This document shows positions 3,891 through 64,000 of a stretch of 64,000 nt of DNA, one piece after another. The DNA is taken from IMG/VR virus record IMGVR_UViG_2799112320_000004, positions 16,908 through 80,907 of that record. One strand, 5' to 3'. How positions within the stretch are numbered: position 1 is the first letter of the stretch; each line of letters begins with the position of its first letter. Position numbers and translations under genes: made by a program. The DNA comes from a virus (lineage: Duplodnaviria > Caudoviricetes). Below the pieces are notes generated by a model that saw only the letters and a program-made list of their open reading frames with translations, was not told the DNA's origin and searched no databases.

Positions 3891-3934
3891 CTTCCGGCAA
3901 TTCCGCCGGGGAAAACAAACAGGAGTAAAAAGCA

Positions 3935-16500: not shown

Positions 16501-19500
16501 GAGGAGCCTGGCCCGTTCCGCAAGCTGTTCGGCCTCATCAGCCGCATCCGCCACCTGCGCGACAGCCGTGCGGCGACGGAACGCCTCGCCGCGAACGCCG
16601 AGGAGGCGCTGTACGACGCGTTCCTCGCGGGCAAGTACCAGCACGTTCGCGACCTCACTTTCGCCGAACCCGTCGCGCCCAAGGCCGAGACGGGCACCGG
16701 CACCGAAGCGCCGCAGACCGGCGCGCCGACGCCAGCGCCGACACCGGCGCCGACTCCGGCACCGGCACCCGCACCGACTCCAGCGCCGACGCCCGCACCG
16801 GCGCCCGCGCCCGCGCCGCGCGTCGTCTCGTTCGAGGCGCTGACGCCGACCGGCGGAAAGAAGGTCAAGGGACACTACGAGATCGTCCCGCTCGCGTCGC
16901 TGCTGCACTCCAACATGGCCGGCTACCCGATGGAGCTCCAGCAGCGCGACCGCAAGGGCAACAAGGGCGAGGAGCAGACGCGCGAGGAGCACATCGCAAA
17001 CTTCGAGCCGGGCTACCTGCTGGCGGATCCGAAGACAGACTCCGGCGCGATGGTCGTGGCACGGCGTCCTGGACCGGACGGCAAGCCGCAGCTCGTCGTC
17101 GTCTCGGGGAACGGGCGCACGATGGTCCTGGAGGAGATGGCCAAGCGCAACCTCTACGACCGCTACCGCAACCGCATGAAGGAATGGGCGAAGGAGAACG
17201 GCGTCGAGAACACCGTCGCGGACGCAGACAATCCCGTCCTCGTGCGCGTGGTGGACGAGCTCGGCGGCGCCACGCTGAAGGAGCTGGCCGACCTCTCGAA
17301 CACAAACGCGATCCAGCAGATGAACGAGGAAGAGCAGGCCCGCGCCGACGCCGACCTCGTGCGTTCGCTCGACCTCGCGAAGCTCTACAAGCCGAACATG
17401 GACGGCTCCGCGAACATGGCCGCCGGAGCGAGCGACGAGTTCTTCCGCGAATTCGTGCGCGCGACGGGCGACACCAGCCTGCTCAATTCCGACGGCACCT
17501 TCACCGAAGCCCTGCGCATGAGGGCGCGGCGCGCACTTCTCGCAATCGCATGCGGACAGGGCGAGCGCGGGCGCGACGTCGTGAAGAAGCTCGTCGAGGA
17601 CACCGATGCGCTCGGCATCGACCGCCAGAAGGACACGGCCGCCGCGATCGCGCCGCACGTCGCGGCCATCGAGACGCGTCCGGAATACGCCATCGGCCCG
17701 GACGTGAGCCGCGCGTTCGCGGACTACATCGAGTTCCGCGAGAACCGCGACACGGGCAAGAAATGGGGTACGCTCGATGAGTACCTGAAGCAGGGCGACA
17801 TGCTCGACCAGCGCAGCGAGATAGCCGAGGCGGTCATGCGGCTCCTGGACGATCCGAAGAGCGCGCCCGTGCTGGCCGAGACGGTGCGCCTCTACGTCGA
17901 AGCCGCCAAGGGCGAAACGGACGGCCTCTTCGGCGCTGCCCGGACACGCGCCGAGATATGGCGCGACGCCGCAAAGGCCGTTAACGTTGAAGCCGCAGAA
18001 AAGCGCTACTCGATCGCGGGCAAGGTGGCCGCCTCAAACATGGGCATCAAGGGCGCGGGCGACGCCGAGGCCATGGAGAAGGCCGGCAAGGATCGCGAGG
18101 AGATATGGCGCACGACCGGATGGTGGCGCGGCAAGGACGGCCGGTGGCGCTTTGAGCTGCCGTCCGTGAAGATGAAGAGCGAAAAGGAGATCGAGGCTGC
18201 GCTACGGGAGGGAATAAACGGCCTTCGCGGCGGAAGCAGCGAAACGACGCTTGAAAAAGTGCTGGACGCTCCGGCGCTGTTCGAGGCCTATCCGCGGCTT
18301 AAGAAAACAAAGATCGTATTCTCTCCGGAACACGACGACAAGACCGGCGGATGGTACGACGCCGGAAAGAACGAGATCGTCCTGCTCGATACGGGTATAA
18401 AGGATCTAAGGCATCGGCCGAAGCACGAACAGGACCTCTACGATACTTACCAGCAGGTAATAAACTCGGACGAGTTCCTTCAGAAGCGGTTCAGCAACAT
18501 GGATGCGTTCGGCATCAAACACGGAACGGCCGAGGAAGAGAGGGCGCTGGCGAAAGACTGGATCGCGAAATTTGACAAGAGCATTCAGGACGAAAACGCC
18601 GCAATAGTCAGAGATCTTGTAAAAGATCGTGGGCCGTACAGCGCATTCGGCAAGATCGTCCACGAGGTGCAACATTCCGTGCAATACATGGAGACATTCG
18701 CAAAGGGCGGAAACCCTGAATCGGCAGCCGAATTCGTCAAGAACATGAAGCGCAAGCAGCGAATATGGGCTTACAGACTCGAGGTCGAGGAGACCGCGAA
18801 AGAGCTTGGCACGACGAATCCCTACGAGATAGAAAGGGCAATCCTCGAGAAGCTGGGAGTGACGAGCCGTGAGCAAATAGCGGGGCTTGAAGCAGATGGA
18901 TGGATCCCCGACAGGGAGGGAAGAGACAAGGGATATAATCTGTTTGCCAGGGGATACGACAAGGAAGGCTACGAAGAAGCCTACAACGAATACCTGGGCG
19001 AAATGAGGAAGACCGGCAGGGCCGGATGGTGGGAAGGCTCTCCACGAGAGCTTTACAACCGTCTTGCCGGCGAGGTTGAGGCGCGGAACGCATCGCGCCG
19101 CGAAGCCATGTCGCCGGAGGAGCGCGCGGCCACGCCGCCCTGGGAAACCGAGGACGTGCCAGCCGACCGCCAGATCGTCAGGTACTCCGTGACGGCGCAG
19201 AGAGTCACGCCCGAAGAGGACGCCGCGTATGCGGACGCCGTGAAGCGCGGCGACATGGAGACCGTGCGGCGCATGGAGCGCGAAGTTTACGAGCGCATGG
19301 GCTACTCGGACGACTCCAGCTACCAGGGAACGAGCGCGTTCAACGGCGCGGCTCCAAGCAGCAACGCCTACTTCGAGACCAAGGCGGAGCGCATCGAAGC
19401 GGCGAAGAACGGCGAGATGGAGGACACTACGACGCTCGGCGACTTCCGCGACGGCATCGACGTCAACAATCTTCAGTTTATCGTGTTTGATCCACGTTCG

Positions 19501-22500
19501 GAGCGCAACGCCGATCCGATGCGCCAGGAGGCAATACGGAACATTCGCGATGTTCTCGACGGCGGCAAAGACACGATAACGATGTACCGCAGCGTCCCGG
19601 CCGACGTGAAGGAGGGACAATTCCGGAACGGCGACTGGATCACGCCGAGCCGCGCCTACGCGGAGGACAACGCCCGCATCCACGGATGGGGCAAGAAGTT
19701 CCGCGTCATCGAGCAGGAAGTTTCGGTCGAAGACGTCTGGTGGGACGGCAACGACATCGCGGAATGGGGCTTCGACGACGGTAAGGGCAGCGTGTACAAG
19801 AACACGCGGGCGAACCGCAAGCTGCTCGGTCCGACCTACGACAACGCGGGCAACCTGATACCGCTCTCGAAGCGCTTCAACGACTGGCTCATGGACGCGC
19901 GCTACTCCATCGCGGGCCGTGTCGCCGCGTCGAATATGGGCATCAAGGGCGCGGGTGAGGCCGAGGCCATGGAGAAGGCTGGCAAGGATCGCGAGGAGAT
20001 CTGGCGCACGACCGGATGGTGGCGCGGCACCGATGGTAAATGGCGCGTGGAGATCCCGGACTTCACGCTAAAGATGGACACGATTGGCAGGGAAGCCAAC
20101 GAAAGCGACCCGGATTACTTCGTGCGCAAGCGGAAGTTGCCAGACATCATCACCGACACCCGTCTCTTTGAGGCGTACCCGGAACTGAAGAAGATCACGG
20201 TCGAGACGCCGCATCACGATACATTCGGCGGGGCCAGCGTCCTGGGTGACTACAACGGCAAGAGGCGCATCCGACTGAACACATGGGCGATGATGTACGA
20301 TCCGGAACAGGTTCGCAGTACGCTCGCGCATGAGATACAGCACGCGATCCAGTACATCGAGGGTTTTGCCAAGGGCGGCAACCAAGGCCAGTTCAAGGAG
20401 GCAGACCCGTGGGCACTGCGCCGAAAGGCGAAGGCGGAGCGCAGGCGCGGCAACGAGACCGAAGCCGCACGTCTGGAAGCCGAGGCCGAGGAGATTGAGG
20501 AAAATGCGCTCGAAGGACATGTGATCGAAAATGGCGAGGTGTACGAGGACACGTTCGAGGCTTACCAGTCGCTCGCGGGCGAGACCGAATCACGCAACGT
20601 CGAGAAGCGCCTTGCCATGACGCCGGAAGAGCGCGCGGCCACGCCCCCCTGGGCGACTGAGGACGTGCCCGCCGACCGCCAGATCGTCAGGTTCTCCCTC
20701 GTCGGCAAGCGTCCGGACGGGATCGAAGTGTTCAGCACGCGCTCCGTGGACGACATGACCAACGCTCAGCGGCGCGACGAGTTCCTACGTAAACTTAAGG
20801 AGGATTATAAGGGACGCACGGCGCGTTTCGTTGCGGACGGCAAGACCTACTATGCGACATTCGGCGATGATGATGTCGGCAAACTCGTATACGGAGACAA
20901 TAAAACATCTCCTCGAAACAAGAAGGTAAAAGATCGAATCGGCGCGGCCGGTGATATATTTGATCTCGTCGAGAACTCTCGTTTCAAGGGACCTGGGAAA
21001 GAGCGCGGAAAGAAAACGGATGCTCACAGGAACGTTGAGAGATGGGATTATTTCGTCAAGACCGTCCAGATCGACGATGGCATGTACGACGTGCGAATCG
21101 AAGTGCGGAGTAAACCCAGCAGGACGGGTCAGTTGAAGGACGAATTCGTCTACAACGTGTTCTTGAACCACAGCAAGAAAAAAGCCGACCTTCGGTTCCT
21201 ATCATGGGCAGAAGCCTTAGCAGGCGATGCCTCCGTCCGTAACGCGAACGTCACGGCTCTCAGACCCGAAAAGTCGGATGCGGAAAGTGTACCAAATCCC
21301 TCCGACGAAATCAAGGCCGATCCGGAGTCTTTTGCGCGGCGCTCGATCGTCTCGCGCGTAATCGACGGCGACGCCGAGGAACGCGAATCCGCGCTCGTGG
21401 CGTTCGTCGCCGAGCGCGCGCTCAGGCACGGCCCGAAGCCGAACGCCTTCAAGACCATCGCGCGGCTCGGGCTGGAGATGGGGCTCAAGACCGTGAACGC
21501 ATCCAATATCGTCAAGAAAGGCGAGGCTCTTGCCGACCGCGTGCGCGGCACCGTCATCGAGAAGGCGATCCGCAAGGGCGACGTCGCCACGGCCACGGCC
21601 CTTCTCGCCCGCGAAAGCGACATCGACCGTCTCGTCGCCGGCGCAGCCGGTCAGGGCGGCCAGCTCGTCCGCGCAGGCGAGGGCAAGATCAAGAGCTTCC
21701 TCGACCGCGAGATCGAAAAGCATATCCGTTCGTTCAACGCCGCGTCGCTCGCGGACGTGGAGCGCGACACCGGCATCGACATCGCGGGCGAGATCCTGGC
21801 CAACAGCCCGGAGAGGTTTGATCCGAAGGGATCGGCGAAGCGCGAGGAAGCCAAGGCCGAAGCCGGCGAGGCTGGAGGCGAGGAAGGTGCCGTGCCCGGC
21901 GCCGGCGCGCCCGACGAGGGCAACATCACCGACTTCGAGCGTGCCCGCCGCGAGCGCGTGCGCAAGGAGGCCGAGGAGCGCGTCGCCAAGATGATCGCCA
22001 CGGCCAAGCAGCGCGCGGAAGAGGCCGAGAATCAACGCGCGGAATGGGAGGCGCAGCGCGAAGAGCGCAAGCGCCAGGCCGAAGCCGCAGCGGCGGCCGG
22101 CGAAGCCGGCGAGGCCGGCGAGGCCGGTGGCGGCGCCGGTGGTGGTGGCGAAGGCGGCGGCGTCGGTGGCGAGACCGTCACGCCGGAGCGTCCGAAACTC
22201 TCCACGTTCGCCGACTTCAAGTCGCCCGAGGAGTTCGCCGCGTTCTTCCGCGTCTGGGCCGAGGAGCGCTACAAGAAGGAACACGGCGCATCCACACTCG
22301 GCAAGCACGAGGAGAAGCGGCTCTTCCCGGAGTTCTACCGCAAGGCCGTCGTGCGCGAGCTGCAAGACCTGGCCGACAAGCTCCTGCCGCCCAAGGGCGC
22401 GCGCGCGACCGTCAACCGCTGGCTCGGCGAGATCCAGCCCGGCGTGAAGCCCGACACCCTCGAGCGCATTTCGGCCGACATCTTCAAGTACATCAACCGC

Positions 22501-25134
22501 AACGCGATCCGCGAGAGCCGCACGGCGACGATCCAGAAGTTCCGGAACGGACTCCAGGAGTTCATCAAGGGCCCGCAGTTCGACGACCTGAAGCTGGACT
22601 CCGACCGCAAGGTGACCGGCTGGGTGGAGGAGGCCGCGCGCTACATCCGGCGCGTGTGCAACCTCTCGATTCAGTCGATCAACGGCGAGCCGTCGCAGCT
22701 GGAAAAGGAGCGCGCCGAGCTCCAGGCCATTCTCGACCGCCGTTCGCAGGTGTACGACGAGGAAGGAAAGAACTCGGCCGACGCGCCGCTGTTCGACATG
22801 GAGACGCGCCGCGCGCTCGCCAAGCTCCAGCTCCTGGAGAAGTACGGCGCGATGAAACGATACATGCCCGGCCAGATCGCCGACCTCGCGAACGAGGCCA
22901 TGACCTGGCTGCGCGACGAAGCTGGCAAGCTCGAGGACGCCTGGAAGAGCGCCCGCGAGACCGAGGAGTCGATCCGTTCCGCGCTCACAGGCGGCATCGT
23001 CGGCCCGAACGGGCAGAAATACCAGCGCGCCGAGGGCGTCAAGGGCTGGGCGGAACGTCTGTTCGACTCCATGAACGGCATGATCCGTCTCCGGCTCCAG
23101 CACCTCGTACGGTTCTCCGATTCCGCGAACCAGCAAAAGGCACGGGACGCCATCAACCGCGTCATCGTCATGCTCGGCGACGGCGAGGTGGCGTTCACGC
23201 GGCACACGCAGAACGACCGCAGGGCGTTCGAGCAGGCGCTCACGCGGATATTCGCCACGCCCGACGGCAAGGGCTTCGACCGCCGCGCGATGGCCGACTG
23301 GCTCAACCGCATGACCGAGGCGATCCCGGCCGACCTCTCGCGCCAGCTCTCCAAGCAGGGCTACGGCGACAGCATGACCTACGGGCAGATGCTCCAGCTG
23401 CTCGTCTCACTCGAGCAGAGATCCTATTCCGAGGCGATTGCGGCGAACAAGCGCGAGAACCAGGCCGATCTCATCCGCACGTTCGAGACCGTCGGCCCGG
23501 ACGGCCGGCGCGAGCGTGTGCTGACCGACAAGGACATCCTCTTCATCGACTGGCTGCGCTCGTTCTACGAGGCGAAGCGCACCCAGCTGTCCGAGGTGAC
23601 GAAGCGCATGACCGGCCTGCCGGTTGATTCTCCCGATCCGCTCTACTGTCCCGTGAAGATGTACATGGGCGACCGCGCGCGCGGCATGCACGTGGACGAC
23701 ACCAAGGCATGGGATCCGATCGGCGCCGTGTTCTCGCGCCGCGTGGAGACGCTGCGCGACTTCGACGAGTCGGCGTCCATCCTGGGCCAGTTCTTCGACC
23801 GCTCCGCAGAGGCCGCCAAGCTCGCGGCATGGGCCGAACGCGGCTCGATCATTCGCGGCGTGTTCACGAACGCGAGCGTCCAGGAGTCGATCCGGCGCGC
23901 GTTCGGCGGCGGCGAGCTCACGAAGATCCTCAAACAGCTCGAGGAGACGTTCAACGGCGGCGAGAACATCAGGAAATCGCCCGGCGAGATCGCAGCCGCC
24001 GACAAGGCGATGAACTGGATGACCTACCTCTCGCTCGGCTACAACCCGCTCTCAGCGATGAAGCAGACCACCTCGGTCTGGGTCTGGGCGAACGCGCTGC
24101 CGGGTGGATTCAAGGACCTCTGGCGCTACATGACCGACGTGGACATGGCCACGATCAAGCACATCAAGGAGAGCGAAGAGTACAAGGTGCGCTACGGCGT
24201 CGAGATCGGCAGCGGCCAGGACGTCGCCACGCGCGCGCTGAATGACGATCCGTCCGAGAACCCGGTCAAGAAGTTCTTCAAGAAGACCTCGATGGGATTG
24301 CTCCGGAAAGGCGACTTCCTTCCGGGTGGCTGGATTGCGCAGGGGCTCTTCCGCGACCTCTACAACCGGCACCTGAGAGAGGGCATGGATCCGCAGGCGG
24401 CCGACAAGCTCGCCATGACCGAGACGTTCAACATGCTCGAAGAGACGCAGCAGTCGGGCCGCACGTACAACACGGCCGCACTCGCGCGCGAACACGGGCG
24501 CCTCGGACGGCTCCTGGTGCAGTTCGCCACCTCGCCGTTGCAGCAGCTCCAGTACGAGACGCAGGCCCTGCGCGAAGTGTGGGATCTCAAGCGCTACAAA
24601 CCGACGACTCCTGACGCCGACTTCGAGAAGCGGTACTCAGATGCGAAAGGAAAGCTCGTGCGTGCTGCCGTGATAAACCATGTCCTGCTCCCGGCCGCGC
24701 TCCACGCCGTCACAAACCTCTACCGCTACGCGATGGGCTACGATCCGGAATGGGAACAGGAAGGCTGGCACTGGACGATGCTCCGCGACATAGTGCTCGG
24801 CCAGTTCTCGCGCGTGTTCTTTATCGGCGCGATTTCCACCGTGACATGGGACACGCTCATCACGGGCAAGCCCATGCGCGAAGTGCCGGCGCTGATTCCG
24901 GCCGAGGGCGTGGTGAAGCTCACCGGCAACATGATGGTCACGGCGCGCGACATCGCGAAGCTGGACTACGAGAAGGTGCAGAAAGACCTGGACCGGCTCT
25001 TGAAATCGACCTCGATCACGCGCACGCCCTATGACGCCTTGCGCCTGCTCTCGGGCAGAGCCTACGCCGAGCGCGAGGAGCGCCGCGAGAAACGCCGCCA
25101 GAAAGAGGAGAAGAAAGCGGCTAAGCAGAAGTAG
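13591..25134 (+). CDS. Giant internal virion polyvalent protein (3847 aa): ParB-like, two LPD23-like + HExxH units, ART-like and LPD3-like modules
   Basis: Last late gene; motifs YPMELQQRDR/VVSGNGR, GWWRGKDGRWRFE (twice), HEVQH/HEIQH, TMYRSVP..GDWITPSRAYAE, WDYFVKTVQID; start may be ATG 13597. Confidence 0.85.
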   Translation: MTMPRPNTPTRWDAIPALTEEERVASALSVSPATATDEESRAAAQTLSRQVLIAHQIAQMPDESFKTEAEKYAAASKIVETMTGAKDLDGRLWNGGKPFKTGKEYLMSVRDVLTRGMTAAADPDLQAWLAMSDEEKDAKLEREQGFLSSLAEGVGDATSQVAAHYGINTELSESEYEAAPEDVRNASFMLSRDDTPQAERDKYGATIREWRTGEWRKLQRRSEYEAKLRRKNALLYLPDMIKSLKTDEAKTLAGELAQDPSAIPDNWEARLRRLPTHDIETLAQIRGMTREQTEGGFFNWLGDMGIGVYNAARGLVNGPYQQLEKYGAMAMGFDENLINETIRRKHALWSAYAGWSSPVAPLSDQHGAVANFTIGLASAVPFIASMKLKALGYVACAGEMMSEADAQAAAAGVDTTSLEYNAINLVAGGTYAYMLKAVSPKFFGASANGAAEEMALRTAFMKGVLSGVAKLDTVKIASQRTAAGSLMMAMQQSIAAVNNDLHLGGDAWNDAAKSFTETFVSSIPDMLAFTGYGILEGHARASGGLPKMFTAEGRANRSQNLREAVENAFAVRTAIVGNEQIDNLRKATILNQLSAMSRAWTEGGEAGLRGLGLKPAEITEAKDYFEAECKQLGAAEKLGELDSILDEQGARGEFDPYVFAERNEAARRYDELARDYSVKTDRLHKRIIEKMLDEKGTLRDIASVRNVWAQGHAVGAGMADGTDAGAAALVKAGFTPEDAAILSREFGAERRNMYSPAATEALREMYTRSTRGMVEAHAALASAFKGKVRTENGRVLIDLPMPDGGTGTLAVETEDLSQRFYGAAGKDPELARQIESIVTRLGGHVTADAWINMTDAERRRIVKEFHLQDEGYFMLTDPADPSLHVDSGDADAVMGVIRLDPTADPGVGFHESMHGFLRFCQETGFFDEADVKWLTDTYGTPQNAKEQLNEESAADGFRQYLAKRMAGSFAEEPGPFRKLFGLISRIRHLRDSRAATERLAANAEEALYDAFLAGKYQHVRDLTFAEPVAPKAETGTGTEAPQTGAPTPAPTPAPTPAPAPAPTPAPTPAPAPAPAPRVVSFEALTPTGGKKVKGHYEIVPLASLLHSNMAGYPMELQQRDRKGNKGEEQTREEHIANFEPGYLLADPKTDSGAMVVARRPGPDGKPQLVVVSGNGRTMVLEEMAKRNLYDRYRNRMKEWAKENGVENTVADADNPVLVRVVDELGGATLKELADLSNTNAIQQMNEEEQARADADLVRSLDLAKLYKPNMDGSANMAAGASDEFFREFVRATGDTSLLNSDGTFTEALRMRARRALLAIACGQGERGRDVVKKLVEDTDALGIDRQKDTAAAIAPHVAAIETRPEYAIGPDVSRAFADYIEFRENRDTGKKWGTLDEYLKQGDMLDQRSEIAEAVMRLLDDPKSAPVLAETVRLYVEAAKGETDGLFGAARTRAEIWRDAAKAVNVEAAEKRYSIAGKVAASNMGIKGAGDAEAMEKAGKDREEIWRTTGWWRGKDGRWRFELPSVKMKSEKEIEAALREGINGLRGGSSETTLEKVLDAPALFEAYPRLKKTKIVFSPEHDDKTGGWYDAGKNEIVLLDTGIKDLRHRPKHEQDLYDTYQQVINSDEFLQKRFSNMDAFGIKHGTAEEERALAKDWIAKFDKSIQDENAAIVRDLVKDRGPYSAFGKIVHEVQHSVQYMETFAKGGNPESAAEFVKNMKRKQRIWAYRLEVEETAKELGTTNPYEIERAILEKLGVTSREQIAGLEADGWIPDREGRDKGYNLFARGYDKEGYEEAYNEYLGEMRKTGRAGWWEGSPRELYNRLAGEVEARNASRREAMSPEERAATPPWETEDVPADRQIVRYSVTAQRVTPEEDAAYADAVKRGDMETVRRMEREVYERMGYSDDSSYQGTSAFNGAAPSSNAYFETKAERIEAAKNGEMEDTTTLGDFRDGIDVNNLQFIVFDPRSERNADPMRQEAIRNIRDVLDGGKDTITMYRSVPADVKEGQFRNGDWITPSRAYAEDNARIHGWGKKFRVIEQEVSVEDVWWDGNDIAEWGFDDGKGSVYKNTRANRKLLGPTYDNAGNLIPLSKRFNDWLMDARYSIAGRVAASNMGIKGAGEAEAMEKAGKDREEIWRTTGWWRGTDGKWRVEIPDFTLKMDTIGREANESDPDYFVRKRKLPDIITDTRLFEAYPELKKITVETPHHDTFGGASVLGDYNGKRRIRLNTWAMMYDPEQVRSTLAHEIQHAIQYIEGFAKGGNQGQFKEADPWALRRKAKAERRRGNETEAARLEAEAEEIEENALEGHVIENGEVYEDTFEAYQSLAGETESRNVEKRLAMTPEERAATPPWATEDVPADRQIVRFSLVGKRPDGIEVFSTRSVDDMTNAQRRDEFLRKLKEDYKGRTARFVADGKTYYATFGDDDVGKLVYGDNKTSPRNKKVKDRIGAAGDIFDLVENSRFKGPGKERGKKTDAHRNVERWDYFVKTVQIDDGMYDVRIEVRSKPSRTGQLKDEFVYNVFLNHSKKKADLRFLSWAEALAGDASVRNANVTALRPEKSDAESVPNPSDEIKADPESFARRSIVSRVIDGDAEERESALVAFVAERALRHGPKPNAFKTIARLGLEMGLKTVNASNIVKKGEALADRVRGTVIEKAIRKGDVATATALLARESDIDRLVAGAAGQGGQLVRAGEGKIKSFLDREIEKHIRSFNAASLADVERDTGIDIAGEILANSPERFDPKGSAKREEAKAEAGEAGGEEGAVPGAGAPDEGNITDFERARRERVRKEAEERVAKMIATAKQRAEEAENQRAEWEAQREERKRQAEAAAAAGEAGEAGEAGGGAGGGGEGGGVGGETVTPERPKLSTFADFKSPEEFAAFFRVWAEERYKKEHGASTLGKHEEKRLFPEFYRKAVVRELQDLADKLLPPKGARATVNRWLGEIQPGVKPDTLERISADIFKYINRNAIRESRTATIQKFRNGLQEFIKGPQFDDLKLDSDRKVTGWVEEAARYIRRVCNLSIQSINGEPSQLEKERAELQAILDRRSQVYDEEGKNSADAPLFDMETRRALAKLQLLEKYGAMKRYMPGQIADLANEAMTWLRDEAGKLEDAWKSARETEESIRSALTGGIVGPNGQKYQRAEGVKGWAERLFDSMNGMIRLRLQHLVRFSDSANQQKARDAINRVIVMLGDGEVAFTRHTQNDRRAFEQALTRIFATPDGKGFDRRAMADWLNRMTEAIPADLSRQLSKQGYGDSMTYGQMLQLLVSLEQRSYSEAIAANKRENQADLIRTFETVGPDGRRERVLTDKDILFIDWLRSFYEAKRTQLSEVTKRMTGLPVDSPDPLYCPVKMYMGDRARGMHVDDTKAWDPIGAVFSRRVETLRDFDESASILGQFFDRSAEAAKLAAWAERGSIIRGVFTNASVQESIRRAFGGGELTKILKQLEETFNGGENIRKSPGEIAAADKAMNWMTYLSLGYNPLSAMKQTTSVWVWANALPGGFKDLWRYMTDVDMATIKHIKESEEYKVRYGVEIGSGQDVATRALNDDPSENPVKKFFKKTSMGLLRKGDFLPGGWIAQGLFRDLYNRHLREGMDPQAADKLAMTETFNMLEETQQSGRTYNTAALAREHGRLGRLLVQFATSPLQQLQYETQALREVWDLKRYKPTTPDADFEKRYSDAKGKLVRAAVINHVLLPAALHAVTNLYRYAMGYDPEWEQEGWHWTMLRDIVLGQFSRVFFIGAISTVTWDTLITGKPMREVPALIPAEGVVKLTGNMMVTARDIAKLDYEKVQKDLDRLLKSTSITRTPYDALRLLSGRAYAEREERREKRRQKEEKKAAKQK
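16723..16818 (+). repeat. Pro-Ala-Thr (PAPT) low-complexity linker repeat
   Basis: Tandem degenerate 6/12-nt units encoding APTPAPTPAP just before the ParB-like domain. Confidence 0.9.
18004..18150 (+). repeat. 147-nt direct repeat, copy 1 (copy 2 at 19900-20046)
   Basis: Both copies encode RYSIAG.VAASNMGIKGAG.AEAMEKAGKDREEIWRTTGWWRG.DG.WR with high nucleotide identity. Confidence 0.9.
19063..19188 (+). repeat. 126-nt direct repeat, copy 1 (copy 2 at 20572-20697)
   Basis: Both copies encode LAGE.E.RN...R.AM.PEERAATPPW.TEDVPADRQIVR(Y/F)S. Confidence 0.9.
22081..22170 (+). repeat. Gly/Glu/Ala low-complexity linker (GEA x3, poly-Gly)
   Basis: 9-nt units ggcgaagcc/ggcgaggcc followed by ggtggc runs. 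Confidence 0.8.
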
Positions 25135-26242
25135 ACTCCAGTGCCTGACGGATCTCCTCCGTCTTGTCGGCGTGGTCATATCGCTGCACGGTCGCGTCCT
25201 GCGTCCATCCGCCGAGCCGCTTTGCGAGGTCGTTGCTCACGCCGGCCTCGGCCAGGCGTGTCCTGAAGGTATGCCGCCAGCTGTGGAAGGTGATCGTCGG
25301 ATCGTCCACGCCGGCCGCCTTCAGGATCGCGGCGAAGGTACAGTCTTCCGGATCGCCGGGATAGACTTTCGCAAACTCCGGAAGCACATACTTCCGGCCC
25401 TTCACGAACAGACCCTTCAGCGCGTCGCGCAGCACGGCCACCATCGGAACCTCGACCTCGATGTTGTAGCCCTGAGTCTTGATCGGCTTCACGCGGATCA
25501 CGCCCCTCTCGAAGTCTACTTTGCTCCATTCCAGGAACACGACGTCATGCTTCCGGAGCCCGGTCCACCGTGCGACGAGACACGCCTCATACCAATGCGG
25601 CACGGCGCTCGCCTTCGCGGCCGCCAGCACGGCCTTCTCCTGGGCGCGCGTAAACGCGGCGTGACGCTGGCCGTCGCGCACGGTCGGCCGGAGGTCCTTC
25701 CACGGATTGCGGACGCCATACAGGGCCTCGGCGGCCTTCCAGATCGTGGATAGATTCCCGATGTATTCTTTCCGGCTTTTGTCCTTCAGCTTCGCCTTGT
25801 GCTTTTTGTCCTTCGGCGAGCTCTTCTTCTTCAGGTGCTCGGCATACGCCATCGCACACTCGAACGTCACCTCCTCCACGGTCGTGACCGGGAACTCGGT
25901 TTTCGTCCACTCGATGAAATCCTCGAGGTTCTTCTTCCGCTGCTTCACGAGCCGTTCGCCCGGCTTGCGATCGCGCATCGACATGAACCGCTCATACGTC
26001 GCCCACAGCTGAGCGATCGGCAGCCCGGCTCCCTCGCGCTCCCTGGTGAAGACGGCGTCGAGAATGGATTTCAATTTCATCTCGGATATCTTGCCCTTAA
26101 TCGACAGGTGCATGGACTCCTCGATCGACCGCGCATCCTTAATGGAAGTTGTGCCGGTAGACTGGCGGATGAATTTCCCTGGTCTTTTGGGGTCACGGAA
26201 TGAAACCCACCAGTATTTAGAACCGTTATTTTTGTATAGCAT
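25121..26242 (-). CDS. int: Tyrosine recombinase / phage integrase
   Basis: N-terminal arm-binding YWWVSF..R.STGT; catalytic TGLR, FHSWRH, LGGW and terminal Tyr (VQRYDH). Confidence 0.95.
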   Translation of the reverse strand: MLYKNNGSKYWWVSFRDPKRPGKFIRQSTGTTSIKDARSIEESMHLSIKGKISEMKLKSILDAVFTREREGAGLPIAQLWATYERFMSMRDRKPGERLVKQRKKNLEDFIEWTKTEFPVTTVEEVTFECAMAYAEHLKKKSSPKDKKHKAKLKDKSRKEYIGNLSTIWKAAEALYGVRNPWKDLRPTVRDGQRHAAFTRAQEKAVLAAAKASAVPHWYEACLVARWTGLRKHDVVFLEWSKVDFERGVIRVKPIKTQGYNIEVEVPMVAVLRDALKGLFVKGRKYVLPEFAKVYPGDPEDCTFAAILKAAGVDDPTITFHSWRHTFRTRLAEAGVSNDLAKRLGGWTQDATVQRYDHADKTEEIRQALESTSA

Positions 26243-26287
26243 TTTAGCCCGTTTCTTTTATTGCGTTAAATTGAACGATGGTCTATT

Positions 26288-26310
26288 GTATCATATTCCG
26301 TATCATATCC
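26288..26310 (+). promoter_or_regulatory. Putative integrase arm-type site pair (A side)
   Basis: Direct repeat GTATCATATTCC / GTATCATATCC between the int start and the tRNA. Confidence 0.55.
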
Positions 26311-26317
26311 GCAACGA

Positions 26318-26358
26318 TAAAAGAAAACAGAAAAACGCCCATTTTCAGGGCGTTTTCC
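26318..26358 (-). terminator. Intrinsic terminator downstream of the tRNA
   Basis: 9-bp stem AAAACGCCC / GGGCGTTTT with a 7-nt loop, then TTTTTCTGTTTTCTTTT on the minus strand. Confidence 0.8.
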
Positions 26359-26369
26359 GTTTATCTTAT

Positions 26370-26446
26370 TGGTGCGACTGACTGGGATCGAACCAGCAAC
26401 CTTCGGCTTCGGAGGCCAACGCTCTATCCAGTTGAGCTACAGTCGC
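26370..26446 (-). tRNA. trnR: tRNA-Arg(CCG), intact with encoded CCA
   Basis: Reverse complement GCGACTGTAGCTCAACTGGATAGAGCGTTGGCCTCCGAAGCCGAAGGTTGCTGGTTCGATCCCAGTCAGTCGCACCA; anticodon loop CT-CCG-AA; GTTCGA T-loop. Confidence 0.95.
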
Positions 26447-26474
26447 ATTATTTCCAATGGTTTTTGATGTTTGT

Positions 26475-26493
26475 TGCCAATTTGATGCCAAAT
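26475..26493 (+). promoter_or_regulatory. Putative integrase arm-type site pair (B side)
   Basis: TGCCAA direct repeat at 11-bp period (TGCCAATTTGATGCCAAAT), about 30 nt from the tRNA 5' end. Confidence 0.5.
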
Positions 26494-26554
26494 CGCGTCG
26501 GCCAGATACATCTCAAACCTTCCGAAAACTTGCCTTTTCCTTCGGTTGCGGAGT

Positions 26555-26583
26555 AGTTTACCACATTCCCTTTCGGTTTGCAA
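26555..26583 (-). promoter_or_regulatory. Sigma70-type promoter reading toward the tRNA
   Basis: TTGCAA-17 nt-TAAACT with an extended TGn; the -35 box starts directly after the stop codon of 26585-36196. Confidence 0.7.
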
Positions 26584-26584
26584 G

Positions 26585-29500
26585 TCAGTCGAAATCGCCA
26601 TCCCAGCCTTCCGCCTCGACCTGCCGCTTCGCCCTTCTGTACATCTTTTCGTCATTCGACATCTTCCTGAGCGTCTTCCCGATCGGATCGAACTCGCTTC
26701 CCATCTTCGCCGCGATGCCCTGCACCTTCTTGAACGCCAGGCCCTCGATGATCTCCGCGTCCTCCTCGGGCAATCCCAGCTCCGCTACCCTCGCCGCGAG
26801 CATCTCGCTGTAGTCGAAGTCCTCGCCTTTCGCCCTCACCGCCTCGATCACCTCGTCCGCCACGCGCTGCGCGGCCGCCCTGAGCGGCGCGCTGTCGTCC
26901 CGCCGGTACTTCTCCAGCCTCCGCGCGATCCGCTCGTTGCCGCCGTTCTGGAATGTGATGAGCCCGCTCGCCGCCGCCGACAGGAACGGTATCGAATGCA
27001 GCGCCTGGAAGATCGTCTTGCCGCCGATCGGCATGCAGCCGGCCTCGCCCTCCTCCGCTCCGCTGAGCGCCCACTGTCCCTGGTCGTCGTACGCCCCCTC
27101 GTCCTCGTCCCAGGTAGTGGCCGGCATGACTACCTGCCCGCCCACGTCGTTCCACAGCTGCTTGCCTACCTTCGTCGCCATGTTGCCCGGATCCGCGAAC
27201 CTCGACTCGAAGTCCGCCTCGCTGTACACCGTGCGCTGCGTGAACGAGTTGTACGGGTTCCACCCGACGAGCGGGCCGATCGCGTCCTGGAACAGCGACA
27301 TGAGCAGTCCCCTTCTCGTGAGGTCCGGCACCAGTCCGCTGTTCAGCACCGTGTTCTGCACCGCCTGCGAGCCCGTGTAGTTCAGGTCCGTCGGCAGCGA
27401 GAATCCCGCCTCCTCGGCGCGCTCAGACCCCAGCAGGCCGTGCGCCAGCAGGTCCACCGCCGGCATGAGCAGCCTGTCCTCGTCGCCGCGCGGCATCGAG
27501 ATCGCGAGCGTGCTCCACTTGCCGTACAACCCGACCGGCACGATGTCGTAGTTTCTCAGACGATAGTCGCTGCAGTTCGCGAGGCCGTGCGCCATGCGCC
27601 GGCCGAACCTCATCAGCCACCCGGCGTTCTTCTGCTTCTCCTCGTCGTCTCCCGCCTCCTCCCCGAGCATCTTTGCGAGGACCGCGTACCCGCCGCCCAT
27701 CCACAGCACGCTCGTCGCGAGGCGCCCGGCGATCCGGCTCGCCGCCTTCGTCCACCAGGCCTTCGGATCGTAGCGCATCGCCTCCAGCGTGCGGTACGCG
27801 CCCTTCATGCCCACGTTCATGAACGGGCCGCACGCGAACTCGATGTAGTTCATCGCGCGTCCCCGGTTCTCGTACCGCGGGCTCCCGCTCATCGTCGCCA
27901 CCTGGTAGGTGATCTCGTCCGCCGACCTCGGCGCCTCCCGTCCCTGCGCGCGCGCCAGCTCCGCCTCGTGCTCCGCCGCGAGGAGCGCGATCAGCTTCAC
28001 GCGCGCCTCCTCGAAGTCGTTGAACCGCTTCACCGTCTCCGCCCGGCGCTGCATCCACCTCTTCACGCGCTTTATGCCGGTCAGCTTCGTGCCGTCTAAG
28101 TTCGTCTCCATGCCCAGCGTGCGCATGAGCTCGTCGATGTCCGTCTTGCCGCTTTCGCCCATGATCTGCTTCCTGACGCCGGCGAAGATCGGCAGCTTCA
28201 TCACGCCCCTGCACTTCTCCACGTCCTCCATGATGCGCTGCGCCTGTGCCGTCTTCCCCTGCCCGGCCAGCCGGTCCGCCTCCGCGATCCTCTGCTGCAG
28301 CAGCTTCGGGTCCTGCATCAGCTTCGCGATCCGCGTCGCCTCCGCCTCGTAGTAGATGTTCGTCTTGTCGCCGTACAGCAGGTTCATCAGGCCGTTGCGC
28401 GCGAACCTGTCCGGCAGGTGCGCCGCCGCGCGCTCCATCAGGAACGTCGCGAGGCGCGCGATCGGACGTAGGCCCACCAGCCCCGCCGCGCCCACGAACT
28501 TCCCCTCGCCCATCCAAGCGATGTTGTTCGCGTTGCTCGCCCGGTTGCGCCAGATGTTGCGCAGCGCGAAACGCGGGCTGTACTGCGTGAGTACCGCGCT
28601 GATCGCCCGGTTGATCTTCACGACCTTGCTCACGCCCTTCGCGTCGTGCTCGAACCCGTCCGCCACGACCTTCGGCATGACGAGCGTCATGCGCCTGCCG
28701 TCCTTCAGGAACGTCACGCTCCCGTACCTGTTGCTCCCCTTCAGACGGCCGCCGCCGCCCCGGTCCTCCATCACCGCGAACCCCTCGAGCCCCAGCGTCT
28801 TCGACGCCTCCGCGAGCGAGCACGCCCAGTGGTTGCGCTGCGCGAACTCGACGATCCGCAGGTCGTTCTCGAGCGTCGCCGCGAGCGGGTCCTTCACCGC
28901 CTTGAGGCTCCCGACGAGCGGCTTCATGAACGAGCTTCCCGACGCGCCGCTGCCCTTGAGCGCGTGCATGTCCATGAGCGCCTCGATCTCCGCGATCACC
29001 GTGCTCTCGCCCGGATGGCGCTTCATCCAGTCCTCGCGCGCGGCCCTGTACGCCTCCACCTCCTCGGCCGTCCACGTCCGCTCGCTCCGCACGTAGCTCG
29101 CGTTCATCCGCCAGTAGCCCACGAGGTCCCGGCCAAACGCCTCCAGCACGAACTCGTTCTCGAGGATGTGCTGCTCGCGGAGCGCCTGGAATCGCTTCGC
29201 CGCCGTCTCGAGACGCGTCCAGCCGTCCGCGCCCAGACGCCCCTCCAAATCCTTCAGCACCTTGTCCGCCTCGCGCTGGTCCATGCCCAGCGCCGCGGCC
29301 TTGCCCTTCTGGTGCATGCCGTCCCGCACGCTCTTCGCGTAGAGATAGCGCCGCAGGTCGTCCAGCTGCACGCCGTCCTTCGCCACCTCGTCCATGATGT
29401 GCTCGGCGAAGTCGAGCGCGTACCTTCTGCCCTTTCCCCCTCCTCTCTGCTTTTCTAGCAGCGCCGCATTTATCTTATTCAGCTCATCCTTCACACTTCT

Positions 29501-32500
29501 GGCCAGCAGATCGTACTTTTCCTTTTCGATCTTCCCCGCCTTCTTCAGACGCTTCAGTTCCGCCAGCTTCTCGCGTACCGCGTCCGTCACCCACATGACG
29601 GCCGGGCCCTCCGTCGAGTCCAATTCCAGCAACAGTCGCGCGCGCGTGCGCTTCCACCAGTTCCCGATCGGCTTGTCCATCTCGGCCAGCAACTCCTTGA
29701 TTGTCGCCTGCTGGTCTGCATCCCACTGCCGCTCGATGTCGCGCATCACGCGCTCGTGCGGACCCTCCGCGTCGCGCGTGCGCCGGAGCGCGTTCCACGC
29801 CTCGGACAGCTTCTCGTTCCCGGCGATCGCCTCCACCATCTTCGCGTACACCTTCGGCGCGTGCGCCTCCAGCCCCACGGGATCCGCCAGGAACATGCCG
29901 AACATCTCCGCCCACAGCTCGCTCGCCGCCACCCCTTCGCTCTTCTTTGCCGTCGGGTCCTTCCTGACGGGATCCTGCTCGCGCCACCACCTCGCGGCCT
30001 CCTGCGCCTCCTTGCCGAGCTCGCCCTTCGTGTCGCCCAGCTCCTTCGAGATGCCCATGCCGAGCTTGCGCAGGTCCTTCAGGCACTGCGGCGCGCCGGC
30101 CGTCGTCGGCAGCTCGCACGCTATGCGCCCGATTTCCTTCGCGAGGATGTTCACGGCGGTGCGGCCGCCGCCGCTCGTCTTGCCCTTGATCCTGGCCTCC
30201 GCGAGCCCCTCCATCTCCTCGGCGAGCGCCTGCTCGCTCAGCTCCTTCATGGCCTTCACTTCTTCGTAGCTGTTGTGCAGCCGCCACGACGGATCCTCGT
30301 TGAGGAACATGCCGTCCTTCTTCAGCCCGGCCTTGACCGCCTCCAGGTCGCTCTTGTCCACGATGCCGAACGCGGCCGCGTTGAGACGCAGCCTGCCGTC
30401 GCGGCCCCTGCCCGCGAGCCACGGCATCTTCTCGAGTATCTTGGGCATGTGCGCGTTCGCCGCGAGCGCGCGGTAGAGGCGCAGTGCCTCGCTGTAGGCG
30501 AGCGTCATGCTGCCGTCCTGCGACGGCCCGGCCTGCCCTTCCCGCTCGAGATAGAGGTTCGCGCCCGCGTCGAAACCGGCCTCTGTGCGCTCGCTCCGCC
30601 CGGCCGCCACGCGCTGCCCTCCGGCGCGCACGGCCCTCAGCACGTCGTCGTACACCTCGTCCCTGCGCTTACCGCCGCGCGCGTAGCGGATGTCTGGATT
30701 TTCCGGATCGAACGTGCCGATGTTGTCCGTTGCGCTCTTGACCTGCGCCCCGCCGTCCAGCGGCACGTAGCTCACGCCTCTGTATTTCACCCCGCTTCCC
30801 GTCGGGTCTCCTCCCTCGTCATAGACGATGCCGTCGTACTTGTCACCGAAGTTCTCGCGCAGGAACTCCCCGTCTACGATCGACGCCTCGCCCCAGTCCA
30901 GCGCGCCCGACTTTCCTTTTATGAATTCGTGGTCCGGGAAGATGCTCTGCAAGTCCTTCAGGCATTCAGGATCCCTGATGTCGAAGGGCCTGCGGATGTT
31001 CAGGTAGTACGCGCCCACCTTTCCGCCGTTGCCCGTGTACCTCTTTGCGTATTCCGGGTCTGCCGTGAAGTATGCCTCCGGCTTGATAACGCCCTTGCCC
31101 GCCTCCTGCGCGAGCGGATCGTACGGCGATCCCCGATACACCACCAGCGGCTCGCCGTTTTCGTCTACGACTTTCGACGCGTTCGCCGGATCCTTCTTCA
31201 CGTCGCCGAAGAATTCCTTGAATTGGCGCGTCTCCGTCTGGCTTGAGATTTTTGCAGCCTGCGCCTTGACCGGCGAACCGGGATCGTGTATACTATGCAC
31301 CAATCCATTCACTTGCTTTCGTTTGGCATACTTTAGCCCTAGGCTTGCAAGTTGTGGATTTGCTTTGGCCAGCGAGGTGAAAACCCTGCTGGTCTTTGCA
31401 TTATCCATGTAGAATACTCCGATATCGCCCTTGCCTTCAGCCTCAATTGCCTCTTTCACAAGTCCTGTCCATGCGTTTCTGCGTCCATGTGCGCTTGTCA
31501 TGACATGTGCCGTTATTTTGCCGCTGTTAATTTCTGGCTCTCCGTTTATAACTATCGGCAGAATCATGTCCCCTTCTGGCGTTGACACAGATGTGATCGC
31601 GACCACACTTGTGTCTTTGCCTTTCTTGGACCTCGACGCTATCACCATCACAGGCTTTTTCAACGCACCAGGGACCTTCTTCAAGTTGTCGCCCAGGCCG
31701 TGCATGTGCCCGCCGATATTCCAGTTCACGCCGTCCTGCTTCGTGAAGTAGCATGTCTCGATGTGGTGCTGCGTCATCATCACAGGCAACTTAACGAATC
31801 CTATTTCCTCTAATGCGCTCGGCGTCTCTCCTACAAACACATAATCGTCAGATATAAGCTTCGCGTTTCTTCCGCCAGCCCTTCTGTTCGCCACGATCTT
31901 GTCAACGGCCTTGTCGAACGGCACTTCGTAATATCGCTGATTCTTCCCTTTCTCGCTGAGTTTCGATACAGGCACCCCGCCCCTGCTGTACCTGATCTCG
32001 CCGTCTGTCCACTTGTGGTCCACGCGGATGTGCTCGTCCGAGAACGCGACGTAGTTCCAGCCCGCCGTGTCGCCGTCCTTCACGCTCTTGCCGCCGTAGG
32101 AGTCGACCGGGTACTTCACGCCGTCGATCCCCGCGCGGTAAAGGAACTCGGAGGCGGCCTGCGGAGAGCCGAGGAGTCTTGACAGGCTTTCGTATATTGC
32201 GTCTCCGCTGTTGCCGTTGTCGGTAATGAAATGCTCCAGGTCGCCGTTGAAGCGAAGCCACCAGGCTCCTTTTAGCTTTTCGCGCAGACCTTCCTTCTCC
32301 GCCTGTGCGATCACCCTGTCCCAGTTGGCGTCGGAAATAGCGTCGTACCACTTCAGCAGGTGGCTCTCGTCGCCCTCCGCCCGGTTCGTGAAGAACGTCT
32401 GCTCGTAGAGGTTGGCTCGCGCCTCGCCGGGTCTTGACTCCCAGCCGCCCTCCTTCAGCTTCTTTAACACGGCCTCTTGTTTCTTGAGGGTGTCTCCTGG

Positions 32501-35500
32501 GATTACTCCAGCACTGACACCTTCCTTAAGGCGCTTCACCAAATCTGCTGACTCTCTTACGGCCCTTCGGACATCGCCCTTCGTCCTTGCGATTTCCCTT
32601 GCTGCCATAACTTCGGCTGAATTGCCGCCCGACAGATCTATTTTCTTGCCGTGCTGAGACACGTCCCAAGCGAAAAATTCTTTAGTGTCCCTGCCTTCAT
32701 TCGCGTATCTATCCGCCACGCTCCTTACATTTGACCCGTACAGCCCCCAGCCGTAGACCTGGCTTCCCTCGCCGGTGCCGATGTGCTTGACGCTCGGCCC
32801 GTCGTCCACGCCGCCCTGCCGCGAGCGGTTCGCGTAGTCCGCCGCCGAGCCCGTGTAGATGCCGCCTATCGACGGCCTGATGTCGCCTTCCGCATTTCCC
32901 CTTCCTTCGCCCAGCCTGCGGCCCTCGAGCATCTGCGCGGTCAGCGCCTCGATCGCCTCCTCGGGATCCATCTTCTCGATCTTCTTCAGGTCGACGCGGT
33001 TGCCGCCCACCGTGCGCGCCATGCCCTTCCACGCCCGCGCGAGCGCGTGCAGCACCTTCCGCCACCACCCGCGCACCTCCGGGCTCTTCGCGAGCAGTTT
33101 CTGGAACCGCTCGCCCATCGTCCGCTCGAACCTCCCGGCGCCGATCTCGTCCATGAGCGCGTCGCCGCTGAAATCTCCGTACGTCTCCTTTATCAGCGCC
33201 TTGAGCTTCTGCGGCGCCCGCGCCGCGTACCGCTTCATCTTGAGCAGCAGGTCCGGGCTGTTCCGCTCCGCCCAGTGCCACACCGCATGCCAGCCGATCT
33301 CGTGCGCGAGCGTCCCGGCGTCCGCGCCTTCGAACAGTACCACCTCGCCCTTGCCCCGGTGGTAGTAGCCCTGCACCTGCCCCTCGGCGTCCTTGATCGG
33401 CTTCGTCTCGCCCGCCGCGCGCAGCGCGGCCTCGGCCTCCTCGGGCGTGCCCGTGCGCACGCGGATCCCGCTCTTCTCGCCGAACAGGCCGTCGACCAGC
33501 CGCTGCCCGGCATCGACCAGCTGGTTTTGCGGGCTTAAGCCCGCCTCCCCGACATTGCTTCTTGCCTCCGCCCGCGCCTTCACGCGCGCGGCCATCAGCA
33601 GGGCCTCGGCCGCATCAGCCGCCGAAACGTCCGCGAACACCAGGTCCACGTCGCCCGCCATCTCCTTCAGCCGCGTGACGAACTGCACCGCCGCGTCGCG
33701 GTTCTCCGGGCGCATCATCTCCTCGCCCGTCATCCCCTCGACGAGCACGATCTCTCGCCCGTCCTCGCTGCGCGTGCGCGTGGCTTTCGCGCCCTCGAAA
33801 CGCACACACCCCACCGATCCGTCCGCCTTCACCGTGGGCTCGGCTGCCTTGTCCGCGCCCGGCGCCGCCGGCGCCTTCGGCAGCCACCCCGACTCATCCA
33901 CCGTCTTGCCTTCCGCCGCCGCCTCCTGGGCCTGCGCCGCGCCCTCGGCCTTGGCCTCCGCCACGCTCTTGATCGTGCCGTCCGGCATCTCCACCATCTC
34001 CGAGTCGGCGTCCACCGCCACGCGCCCGACGGCGCGCTCGCGCGCGGCGCGGATCGCGTCCGCCGCCTCGCGGTCGGTGTAGTCCGGCTTGCGCGCTGCA
34101 AGCTCCGCGATCGCGTCCATGGCCGCGCCCGCCTCCTCCGGCGGCAACTTGCCCGCGATCATGTCGAGGGCCGTGGCCTGCGCCCTCTCGGATGCCTCGC
34201 CGAGCGACTTCTTGCCGAGCCTCTCCGCGCATTCCGCCGCCCAGGCGCGCCCCACCGTGCCCTCCGTGGCCGCGCTCTTCAACGCCTCCGAGCCCTCGTT
34301 CAACACCGTGATCGCGTCCACCACCGGCCTCTCCGGCACGATGCCGTAGCGGTCGCAGTCCTCCTCGCTGCGGATTCCGAGCGCCTCGACGCCGCGCGCG
34401 ATCTCCTCGCGCGTGCCGCGCCCCTCGCGCATGTTCTCCACGGCGTCCAGCGACTCGGCCTGCTGGCGCGTCCAGCCCTGGTCCTCGCGCACCTCGACCG
34501 CCTTGATCTCCTTCACGCCCGCCGCCGCCGCGCCCGCCGCGCGGCTGCGCCCCGTCACCAGCACGCGCGTGCCGTCGTTGCCCACCCACACGATCACCGG
34601 CGGCGCCTTCGCCTGGTCCCACTCGCCGTCCAGCACCGTGCCCTGCTTGAAACTCGTCTCCGTGATCTGGAGCCCTTCGAGCGGCTCCGCCACCGTCGGC
34701 AGCTCGCCGCGCTCCAACGCGTCCAGCATGATCGCCGCATTCTCCGCGCGCGTCTCCCCCTTCGGCAGCTCGTTCCCCTCCGCGTCCCTTTGCACATCCG
34801 CCTCGCGGTTGGCGCGGTAGCCCTCCACCGCGCCCGTGCGCGCATCGAGGATCGTGCCGTCGGCCACCGTGATCGTCGCCCGGCCGTCCTTGCCCACTTG
34901 CCACACGCTGCCGTCGTCGAACTGCACAGCCCCGTTCGGCAGCACGCGCTTCACGTTCTCCGTTCCCTCCATGCCGGCTTCCAGCCATCCCGCGCCGACC
35001 TCCCGCGCCCGCAGCGCCAGCTGTGCCTGCCGGTCCATGATCGGCGCGTAGGTCTTGCGGTTCTGCTCGACCTGGAACGTGATCGCGCCTTCGCCGTTCT
35101 TGCGGTCCGCCCTCCACGCGAGCCACGCGCCCGACTTCCCCAGCGCGTTCACCGCGTGGAACGCGCTCCCGACCAGGAACTCGCTCATCACCGTCTTCGC
35201 CACTTCCCATGCGCTCTTCTTGTGCCAGTTCTGGTCCGTGCCGGCCGTCGCCAACGCCTCGACGCCTTCCTTCGTTGCCGCCACCCCCGCCATCATCGCG
35301 CCGCTCTTCATCGCCTCGAGCGTGAAACGCTTCACGATCTCCGTCTTCGTCAACTGCTCGAACGGCTTCGGCATCGCCATGTTCATCTTCTTCCACGGAC
35401 CCAGCACGCCGAACATCGCCGCCTCTATGCCGCCCTTCGCCGCCGCCGCGAGCTCCTGGCGCCATCCGCCCGGCCCCTCCGGATCCTCCGCCATCTCGGC

Positions 35501-63982: not shown

Positions 63983-64000
63983 AATCTTTTCGCCTTGCAT

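Follow-up and report, generated by a model that had tools for sequence, protein, structure and literature searches.

Two unrelated prophages very probably occupy opposite ends of a single-copy tRNA-Arg(CCG) gene, one of them by 5′-side integration

Genetic elements that insert into tRNA genes usually carry the 3′ part of the gene, the side that needs no promoter. Regeneration from the 5′ side is rare but already on record. The Islander database report counts 159 of 3919 islands with a 5′ fragment of the tRNA gene (tDNA), and a table note there, citing Williams 2002, assigns crossovers to three sublocations, namely the anticodon loop, the T loop and the T/acceptor junction (3′ end) (PMC4383910). 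HTVC019P-type pelagiphages complement the 5′ end of tRNA-Cys, -Leu and -Arg, as confirmed by junction polymerase chain reaction, and the legend of Fig. S1 gives their integrases the standard R-H-R-Y residues (bioRxiv 10.1101/410191). dusA-specific integrases replace the 5′ end of their target gene, with putative -35/-10 elements lying upstream afterwards (PMC4482086). The available parts of PMC4383910 and bioRxiv 10.1101/410191 contain no discussion of a promoter, of a terminator behind the displaced (orphan) tRNA piece or of a crossover in the D arm, and a full-text literature search for D-loop crossover in tDNA returned no paper. Here we analyse a stretch of 64,000 nucleotides (the window) of the IMG/VR virus record IMGVR_UViG_2799112320_000004, which represents bases 32900-96899 of the 109-kb contig C129 of a metagenome-assembled genome (MAG; 5.2 Mb, 351 contigs). 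The only tRNA-Arg(CCG) gene of the host, a gut bacterium, has very probably been entered at its two ends by two unrelated temperate phages, prophage A from the usual 3′ side and prophage B from the 5′ side. A sequence-only reading of the window had started from the rule that elements normally restore the 3′ end; the rule is correct as a norm, but 5′ restoration exists as a rare class.

ARAGORN detects 53 tRNAs in the assembly but a single tRNA-Arg(CCG), which is also the one tRNA within the window (26370..26446, - strand). Tandem integration had been suggested to yield an extra functional tRNA, which the presence of one copy contradicts. The gene is flanked by prophage A (45.3 kb) on its left and prophage B (41.4 kb) on its right. 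When 26250-26600 was compared with all contigs of the assembly by short-word BLAST, two exact partial copies of the tRNA were returned, both on C129 and in the same orientation; the tRNA is therefore bracketed by two elements with a direct repeat each. Each distant repeat copy abuts host DNA. The gene thereby combines sequence from B, from the host and from A. Comparison of the repeats leaves 25 nt outside both of them, tRNA nt 27-51 (26396..26420, - strand), which extend from position 26 through the anticodon arm and the variable loop into the first 2 nt of the T stem; going by the repeats, this segment alone, of all that lies between the prophages, has to stem from the original host. The tRNA is the only gene between the start of the A integrase (26242) and the stop of a 3203-aa gene of B (26585), in line with the earlier statement that no host gene separates the phages. 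An intact tRNA, a terminal fragment in the same orientation and an integrase gene inside the element, which together characterise tRNA-regenerating elements, were found for A as well as for B, and both junctions are confirmed by empty sites in relatives. The two phages have 644 nt of weakly similar DNA in common, and their recombinases show no similarity.

The integration of A is a classical 3′-regenerating one with an identity block running from the T arm to the 3′ end. Its core consists of tRNA nt 52-77 (T arm to CCA) plus 2 nt (26368..26395, - strand) and recurs over 28 bp with 100% identity at C129 13925-13952, 45.3 kb leftward. A search left of the window for a 3′ tRNA fragment had been proposed, and this displaced host fragment is indeed there, beside the native host terminator (L001, about 13895-13925; L-numbers denote the contigs and loci compared, G-numbers related genomes and G000 the assembly containing C129). 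This terminator, 45 kb away from the tRNA, is a guanine-cytosine (GC) hairpin that aligns with the terminators of the empty sites. In its place next to the tRNA, A supplies an intrinsic terminator of its own with an 11-pair stem followed by a T run (26330..26358, - strand). The A integrase (25121..26242, - strand, 373 aa) starts towards the tRNA and is a canonical tyrosine recombinase, matching PF00589 (E 8e-21, 75 bits, above the gathering threshold) and PHROG 1 integrase (E 3e-40). Between this gene and the tRNA lies a tandem repeat pair with a 12-bp period, GTATCATATTCC / GTATCATATCC (26288..26310, + strand). The motif GTATCATA has 58 copies in the 5.2-Mb assembly, both strands counted, four of which form two tandem pairs, one near each end of A (C129 14022/14034 and 59187/59199), and this placement suggests that the tandem repeats are likely arm-type binding sites for the A integrase. 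The A-side repeats and terminator, like the TGCCAA pair with 11-bp period on the other side of the tRNA, were located by the sequence-only reading exactly where we find them. The A integrase very probably recombined in the T-arm region; as A brings a copy of nt 52-77 together with its own terminator, the tRNA gene stays whole.

Prophage B presents the mirror image. Its core comprises tRNA nt 1-26, that is the 5′ strand of the acceptor stem and the whole D arm, plus 3 nt upstream (26421..26449, - strand), and a 29-bp copy with 100% identity lies 41.4 kb rightward beside host DNA (C129 100736-100764; 67837-67865 in the numbering of the window). The proposal to look beyond position 64000 was well founded, since a recombinase of B, matching arm repeats and a second partial tRNA-Arg copy are all present there. 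The upstream side of this orphan 5′ piece joins host DNA, and the other side joins a strong hairpin with a T run (z = -4.5). B differs from a classical 3′ element in that the fragment is nt 1-26 and lies upstream of the tRNA, and in that the phage attachment sites (attP) of viral relatives hold a 5′ piece only. What is found at B is the signature of the 5′-regenerating class: a displaced 5′ fragment upstream and a new 5′ end that comes from the element.

Related genomes carry the site without prophages. Searching 40 of them with the right-hand host flank revealed an unoccupied site in seven same-genus genomes, consisting of a surface-protein gene, 15-35 bp, an intact tRNA-Arg(CCG) and a GC hairpin. 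The tRNA is identical (100%) to that of the window in four of the seven, and the flanks match the far-right and far-left flanks of G000. The native upstream sequence (…GGTCGCAGCAAT) is now located at the far end of B and differs from 26447-26584. The sequence-only reading, which had assigned the segment 26447-26583 to B, would have been refuted by its presence upstream of the tRNA in prophage-free hosts; in such genomes of the genus, B's far-end sequence is found in that position instead, and the reading withstands this check. The conserved surface-protein gene codes for 246 aa with an LA_2272-type repeat (L003 8790-9530, which is C129 100789-101529, and L085-L095). No promoter was called on the tRNA strand upstream of the orphan piece within the last ~300 bp of this gene, and the native tRNA may be co-transcribed with it. 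Such co-transcription would explain why B carries a terminator behind the orphan piece and needs a promoter of its own. We also considered G003 as a B-occupied site and rejected it, as its tRNA has a different native upstream region.

The empty sites bear directly on whether the tRNA belongs to the host at all. Phages often carry tRNA genes, and this one lies directly behind the last gene of B; B could thus have brought a complete cargo tRNA-Arg into which A integrated, the host's gene being elsewhere or lost. Both parts of this idea, a whole tRNA delivered by B and an insertion of A into it, had been put forward before, and we consider them very nearly untenable. The far end of B has nt 1-26 only, joined to the host flank of the empty-site relatives, while A's displaced 3′ piece sits beside the native host terminator. 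B and the related viral contigs hold a 5′ piece extending from nt 1 to about nt 21-26, and ARAGORN finds no tRNA in these contigs. The tRNA is the host's gene, and A did not enter cargo of B.

Having replaced the native upstream sequence, B provides the tRNA with a leader (26450..26554, - strand) that contains two TGCCAA (TTGGCA) repeats at 26475-26480 and 26486-26491, 11 bp apart in period. Five copies of TG[GT]CAA occur in the 209 bp between the far core copy and the recombinase gene of B, where a contig density of 0.62 per kb gives a Poisson P of about 3e-7. These repeats are likely arm-type sites for the B recombinase. At A, at B and at a related element in G042 described below, repeats distinct from the core are found on both attP arms, which at the sequence level is the hallmark of a heterobivalent integrase. 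Upstream of the leader lies a candidate promoter supplied by B (26555..26583, - strand), composed of TTGCAA (26583-26578), a 17-nt spacer and TGgTAAACT, in which TAAACT (26560-26555) is preceded by TG. Lying 108 nt ahead of tRNA +1, it directly adjoins the stop of the last B gene (26585..36196, - strand), which encodes the 3203-aa polyvalent protein with MuF_C and ART-PolyVal domains.

The same arrangement recurs in phages that carry related recombinases. A single-protein search of viral contigs with the B recombinase found no close relatives; an alignment search of viral contigs returned four full-length relatives and one short partial match. The four IMG/VR contigs (L096-L099, 39-47 kb) have homologues at 27-40% identity, with the gene lying mid-contig except in L097, where one contig end is about 5 kb away. 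In all four, the order is a promoter, a repeat-bearing leader, a tRNA-Arg 5′ piece, a second promoter, repeats and the recombinase gene. The first promoter is of sigma-70 type (9-11 of 12), the leader measures 82-97 nt and contains direct repeats, the 5′ piece stops inside the 3′ strand of the D stem, and no whole tRNA was found by ARAGORN. Together with the far-end repeat of B, these sites bear out the suggestion that the attP of B carries a promoter-like element and the 5′ part of the tRNA. The gene directly before the cassette of L096 is a homologue of the B polyvalent gene (42% identity over about 1090 aa), as is also the case in G042, and L096 thus shows the join that the two ends of B would make upon excision. 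An attP-type 5′ piece is also present in L005, and an orphan 5′ piece beside host DNA was found in L006, L079 and L075, with L006 being integrated at the same host site as B.

Behind the orphan piece, B, L096 and L079 have terminator hairpins, and inspection by eye shows one in L006 as well. The terminator after the tRNA piece of L096 is a clear intrinsic one, the hairpins of L097 and L099 pair with the piece itself, and no significant fold was detected after the piece in L098. Phage DNA following the piece is complementary to it in L079 (9726-9790), L099 (3776-3830), L096 (3781-3820) and L097 (1137-1200), and L079 has a 17-bp perfect hairpin plus T run that is built partly from tRNA sequence. 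We rejected the inverted repeats of L079, L099 and L096 as core-type binding sites, given that they are centred beyond the block of tRNA identity; a role as terminator or sequestering hairpins suits them better.

Two further genomes inform on the integrated state. G042, the genome holding L075, contains a 43.1-kb element of which both ends are seen, with nt 1-21 of tRNA-Arg(TCT) repeated. The copy distal to the recombinase extends as an ordinary tRNA for 53 nt, including the anticodon arm, up to the contig end. Upstream of it are an 88-nt leader and a 12/12 promoter (TTGACA-18-TATAAT, with TG); both arms carry ATTACCCA repeats, located in the leader and beside the recombinase gene. The same-genus genome G019 (L101, G019:C168, 2700-5000) harbours a B-type fossil behind the surface-protein gene. 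Here, a mutated orphan 5′ piece and a B-type terminator are followed by a 1.8-kb gene for a 601-aa FGE-sulfatase-domain protein, a remnant of a polyvalent gene (its last 15 nt), the promoter with the leader, and the tRNA. Promoter and leader are 90% identical to 26450-26600 with both hexamers intact, no recombinase gene was found at the fossil, and the tRNA-Arg(CCG) fronted by it is the sole copy in G019. The phage-derived upstream region has outlived the phage, as one expects if it drives the tRNA.

The sequence-only reading had spoken of a good sigma70 promoter abutting the stop of the last B gene. Its location is accurate and its position is conserved in relatives, but 'good' was an overstatement for a match of 8/12, which falls below the scan threshold of 9 and was therefore not called. 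One may accordingly ask whether B dedicates a promoter to the tRNA or whether the gene is served by read-through from B genes or by a weak, unrecognised start, the hexamers having another role such as expression across attP in the free phage. The score of 8/12 is compatible with this, and in G019 a same-strand upstream gene could read through. We nevertheless judge it unlikely. Six elements with recombinases 27-41% identical to that of B have a promoter-like site 82-108 nt ahead of the tRNA piece, and in five of them, with distances of 82-97 nt, it scores 9-12/12. Both hexamers are kept in the G019 fossil. Moreover, the sole tRNA for the CGG codon in a genome of 64-66% GC presumably must be expressed in the lysogen, in which late genes such as the polyvalent gene would be expected to be silent. 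A dedicated promoter supplied by B hence remains our preferred interpretation.

We next turn to the protein that would catalyse this integration. A 378-aa gene (protein P0001) lies about 200 bp past the orphan piece of B in the same orientation. It has 41 homologues, all unnamed or annotated as 'hypothetical', of which the closest share 84-99% identity; homologues of the proteins analysed here come from Kiritimatiellota and Lentisphaerota MAGs, mostly of animal guts and rumens. An AlphaFold model built on the homologue alignment reached a predicted local distance difference test score (pLDDT) of 88. The best Foldseek match was full-length lambda Int (1z1g/1z1b; E 1e-7, probability 1.0, about 400 aligned columns), with further matches to XerA, Cre, XerH and Tn1549 Int. 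Because full-length lambda Int is the best structural match, the protein is predicted to be an arm-binding tyrosine recombinase with three domains, one that sequence comparison fails to reveal. R235, K262, Y327-E-L-R330, G351-D352 and Y361 are invariant in 31 homologues. The resulting spacing, Y-E-L-R, 22 residues to G-D and 9 to Y, matches what we take to be the spacing of lambda Int (H308-x-x-R311, H333, Y342). hhalign aligned the B recombinase with the A integrase in the R and K region alone and weakly (E 0.07).

When 22 long homologues are placed in a tree, the nine elements that have a 5′ piece ending in the D arm fall on both sides of the midpoint root. A pair of ordinary polarity, L050 and L051, is nested among them, and polarity must therefore have changed at least once within the clade. 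In L050 a complete tRNA-Thr(TGT) precedes the recombinase gene (3691-3934), and L051 has the 3′ part of tRNA-Thr from the anticodon loop onwards with a hairpin before it (9780-9992). About 60 shorter homologues (about 300-340 aa; L007-L083) have no N-terminal arm-binding domain and are common in Kiritimatiellota MAGs, often with several per genome. L004 encodes a full-length homologue (41% identity) with a host gene stop and a short hairpin-forming segment upstream (about 9700-10000); no recognisable tRNA piece was found in this upstream region, and the homologue may target a different small gene.

From these data we propose the following course of events for B. Its attP would consist of the promoter, a leader of ~100 nt with arm-type sites and a copy of tRNA nt 1-26, followed by the terminator, the second promoter, more arm-type sites and the recombinase gene. 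The recombinase would exchange strands somewhere from nt 1 to nt 21-26 of the tRNA, with the D loop, flanked by the two D-stem strands, as the simplest location. Recombination would leave the host upstream gene with the orphan 5′ tRNA piece, ended by the B terminator, then 41 kb of phage and finally the B promoter, the leader and the 5′ piece fused to the remaining host tRNA. Transcription would start at the TTGCAA/TAAACT element about 100 nt upstream of the tRNA, with RNase P trimming the transcript, and the hairpin behind the orphan piece would stop transcription arriving from the host gene and shield the recombinase gene. The lysogen's sole tRNA-Arg(CCG) would hence be transcribed from phage DNA. 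The att sites of A and B do not overlap, and therefore either phage could have arrived first and each could leave alone, provided that it is still competent for excision. The promoter and 5′ half supplied by B had been viewed as a landing pad for a second phage; we disagree, since the target of A, from the T arm to the 3′ end, lies outside the B contribution and the order of arrival cannot be read from the locus.

Several observations weigh against this interpretation in addition to the sub-threshold score of the promoter. The 378-aa protein of B has no match in Pfam (even at E 10), PHROGs, NCBIfam or the sequences of the PDB, and both expected catalytic His positions are replaced (Y327, D352) if the spacing is taken as above. 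The crossover is bounded at no finer than tRNA nt 1 to 21-26. The arrangement of A, tRNA and B is represented by a single MAG contig, and exact-pattern scans found no independent A-tRNA-B junction among metagenome contigs and no B attP junction among metagenome and viral contigs. Might the contig then be an assembly chimera, with an A-lysogenic and a B-lysogenic strain joined across the shared tRNA and no cell containing both? A MAG in 351 contigs, a common segment of merely 77 bp and the lack of the junction on any independent contig found would fit this idea. Yet C129 continues unbroken from one host flank to the other across A, the tRNA and B, the assembly contains no alternative tRNA copy or empty junction, and two non-overlapping att sites make double occupancy mechanically unproblematic. 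We thus think a chimera improbable. Even if it were one, each integration, including that of B at the 5′ side, would stand on its own junctions. Double occupancy of one host tRNA gene therefore remains the reading that we favour.

As to the surroundings, genes left of the tRNA lie on the + strand, except for the - strand integrase, and genes to its right lie on the - strand. The last structural gene of A encodes a 3847-aa polyvalent protein with ddrB-ParB, LPD23 and LPD3 domains (13591..25134, + strand). Giant polyvalent genes (3847 and 3203 aa) thus end both A and B and converge on the tRNA with different domain sets. B also codes for a large terminase and a DNA methyltransferase.

Taken together, the evidence may point to a more general picture, for which and against which we see about equal chances: an unrecognised lambda-Int-like clade of gut Kiritimatiellota and Lentisphaerota phages would add a fourth crossover sublocation, the D arm of tRNA-Arg genes, by means of a cassette of promoter, arm sites, 5′ piece and terminator. 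A needed single-copy tRNA would come under a phage promoter, with integrase sites in its leader, the host would then depend on this prophage end, which alone is kept in the G019 fossil, and polarity would be switchable within the clade. The locus matters in several respects. Finders of prophages and islands that depend on integrase models would miss the B recombinase. How 5′-side insertion gets around the promoter problem is legible in the sequence itself, in an architecture shared by six or more elements. Through its promoter, a prophage could bring the transcription of a single-copy host tRNA under its control, and such a promoter could stay on to drive the gene for good after the prophage has decayed, as in G019. 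A gene of 77 nt can accept two unrelated integrases as mirror images of each other and without mutual interference, so that just 25 nt of host DNA separate two prophages that total 87 kb. As a new pair of integrase and att sites with a short, defined bacterial attachment site (attB) in a conserved tRNA, the system could also aid genome engineering.

Compared with classical tRNA-targeting integrases, A fits the class fully. B resembles it in its flanking repeats of tRNA segments, the regenerated tRNA, the arm-type repeats on both sides of the core and an integrase gene about 100-200 bp from the core, and its recombinase has the predicted three-domain fold of the lambda-Int class. It departs from the class in that its attP holds the 5′ and not the 3′ part of the tRNA, so that a promoter must be supplied, in an identity block that ends in the D arm, outside the three sublocations listed in the Islander table note, and in a recombinase that neither PF00589 nor the other sequence models tried recognise. 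Like the 5′ islands of Islander and the pelagiphages, B displaces the 5′ fragment upstream and supplies a new 5′ end; unlike the pelagiphages, it belongs to a recombinase clade that is divergent in sequence and restricted to gut phages of Kiritimatiellota and Lentisphaerota. With the dusA integrases it shares entry at the 5′ end of a gene, substitution by its own sequence and putative promoter elements upstream, whereas its target is a tRNA gene and not a protein-coding one, and the dusA integrase family is a different and recognisable one. While 5′-side regeneration as such has precedents, the unrecognised recombinase clade, the end point in the D arm, the conserved promoter/terminator cassette, the probable occupancy of both ends of one gene and the fossil in G019 are new.

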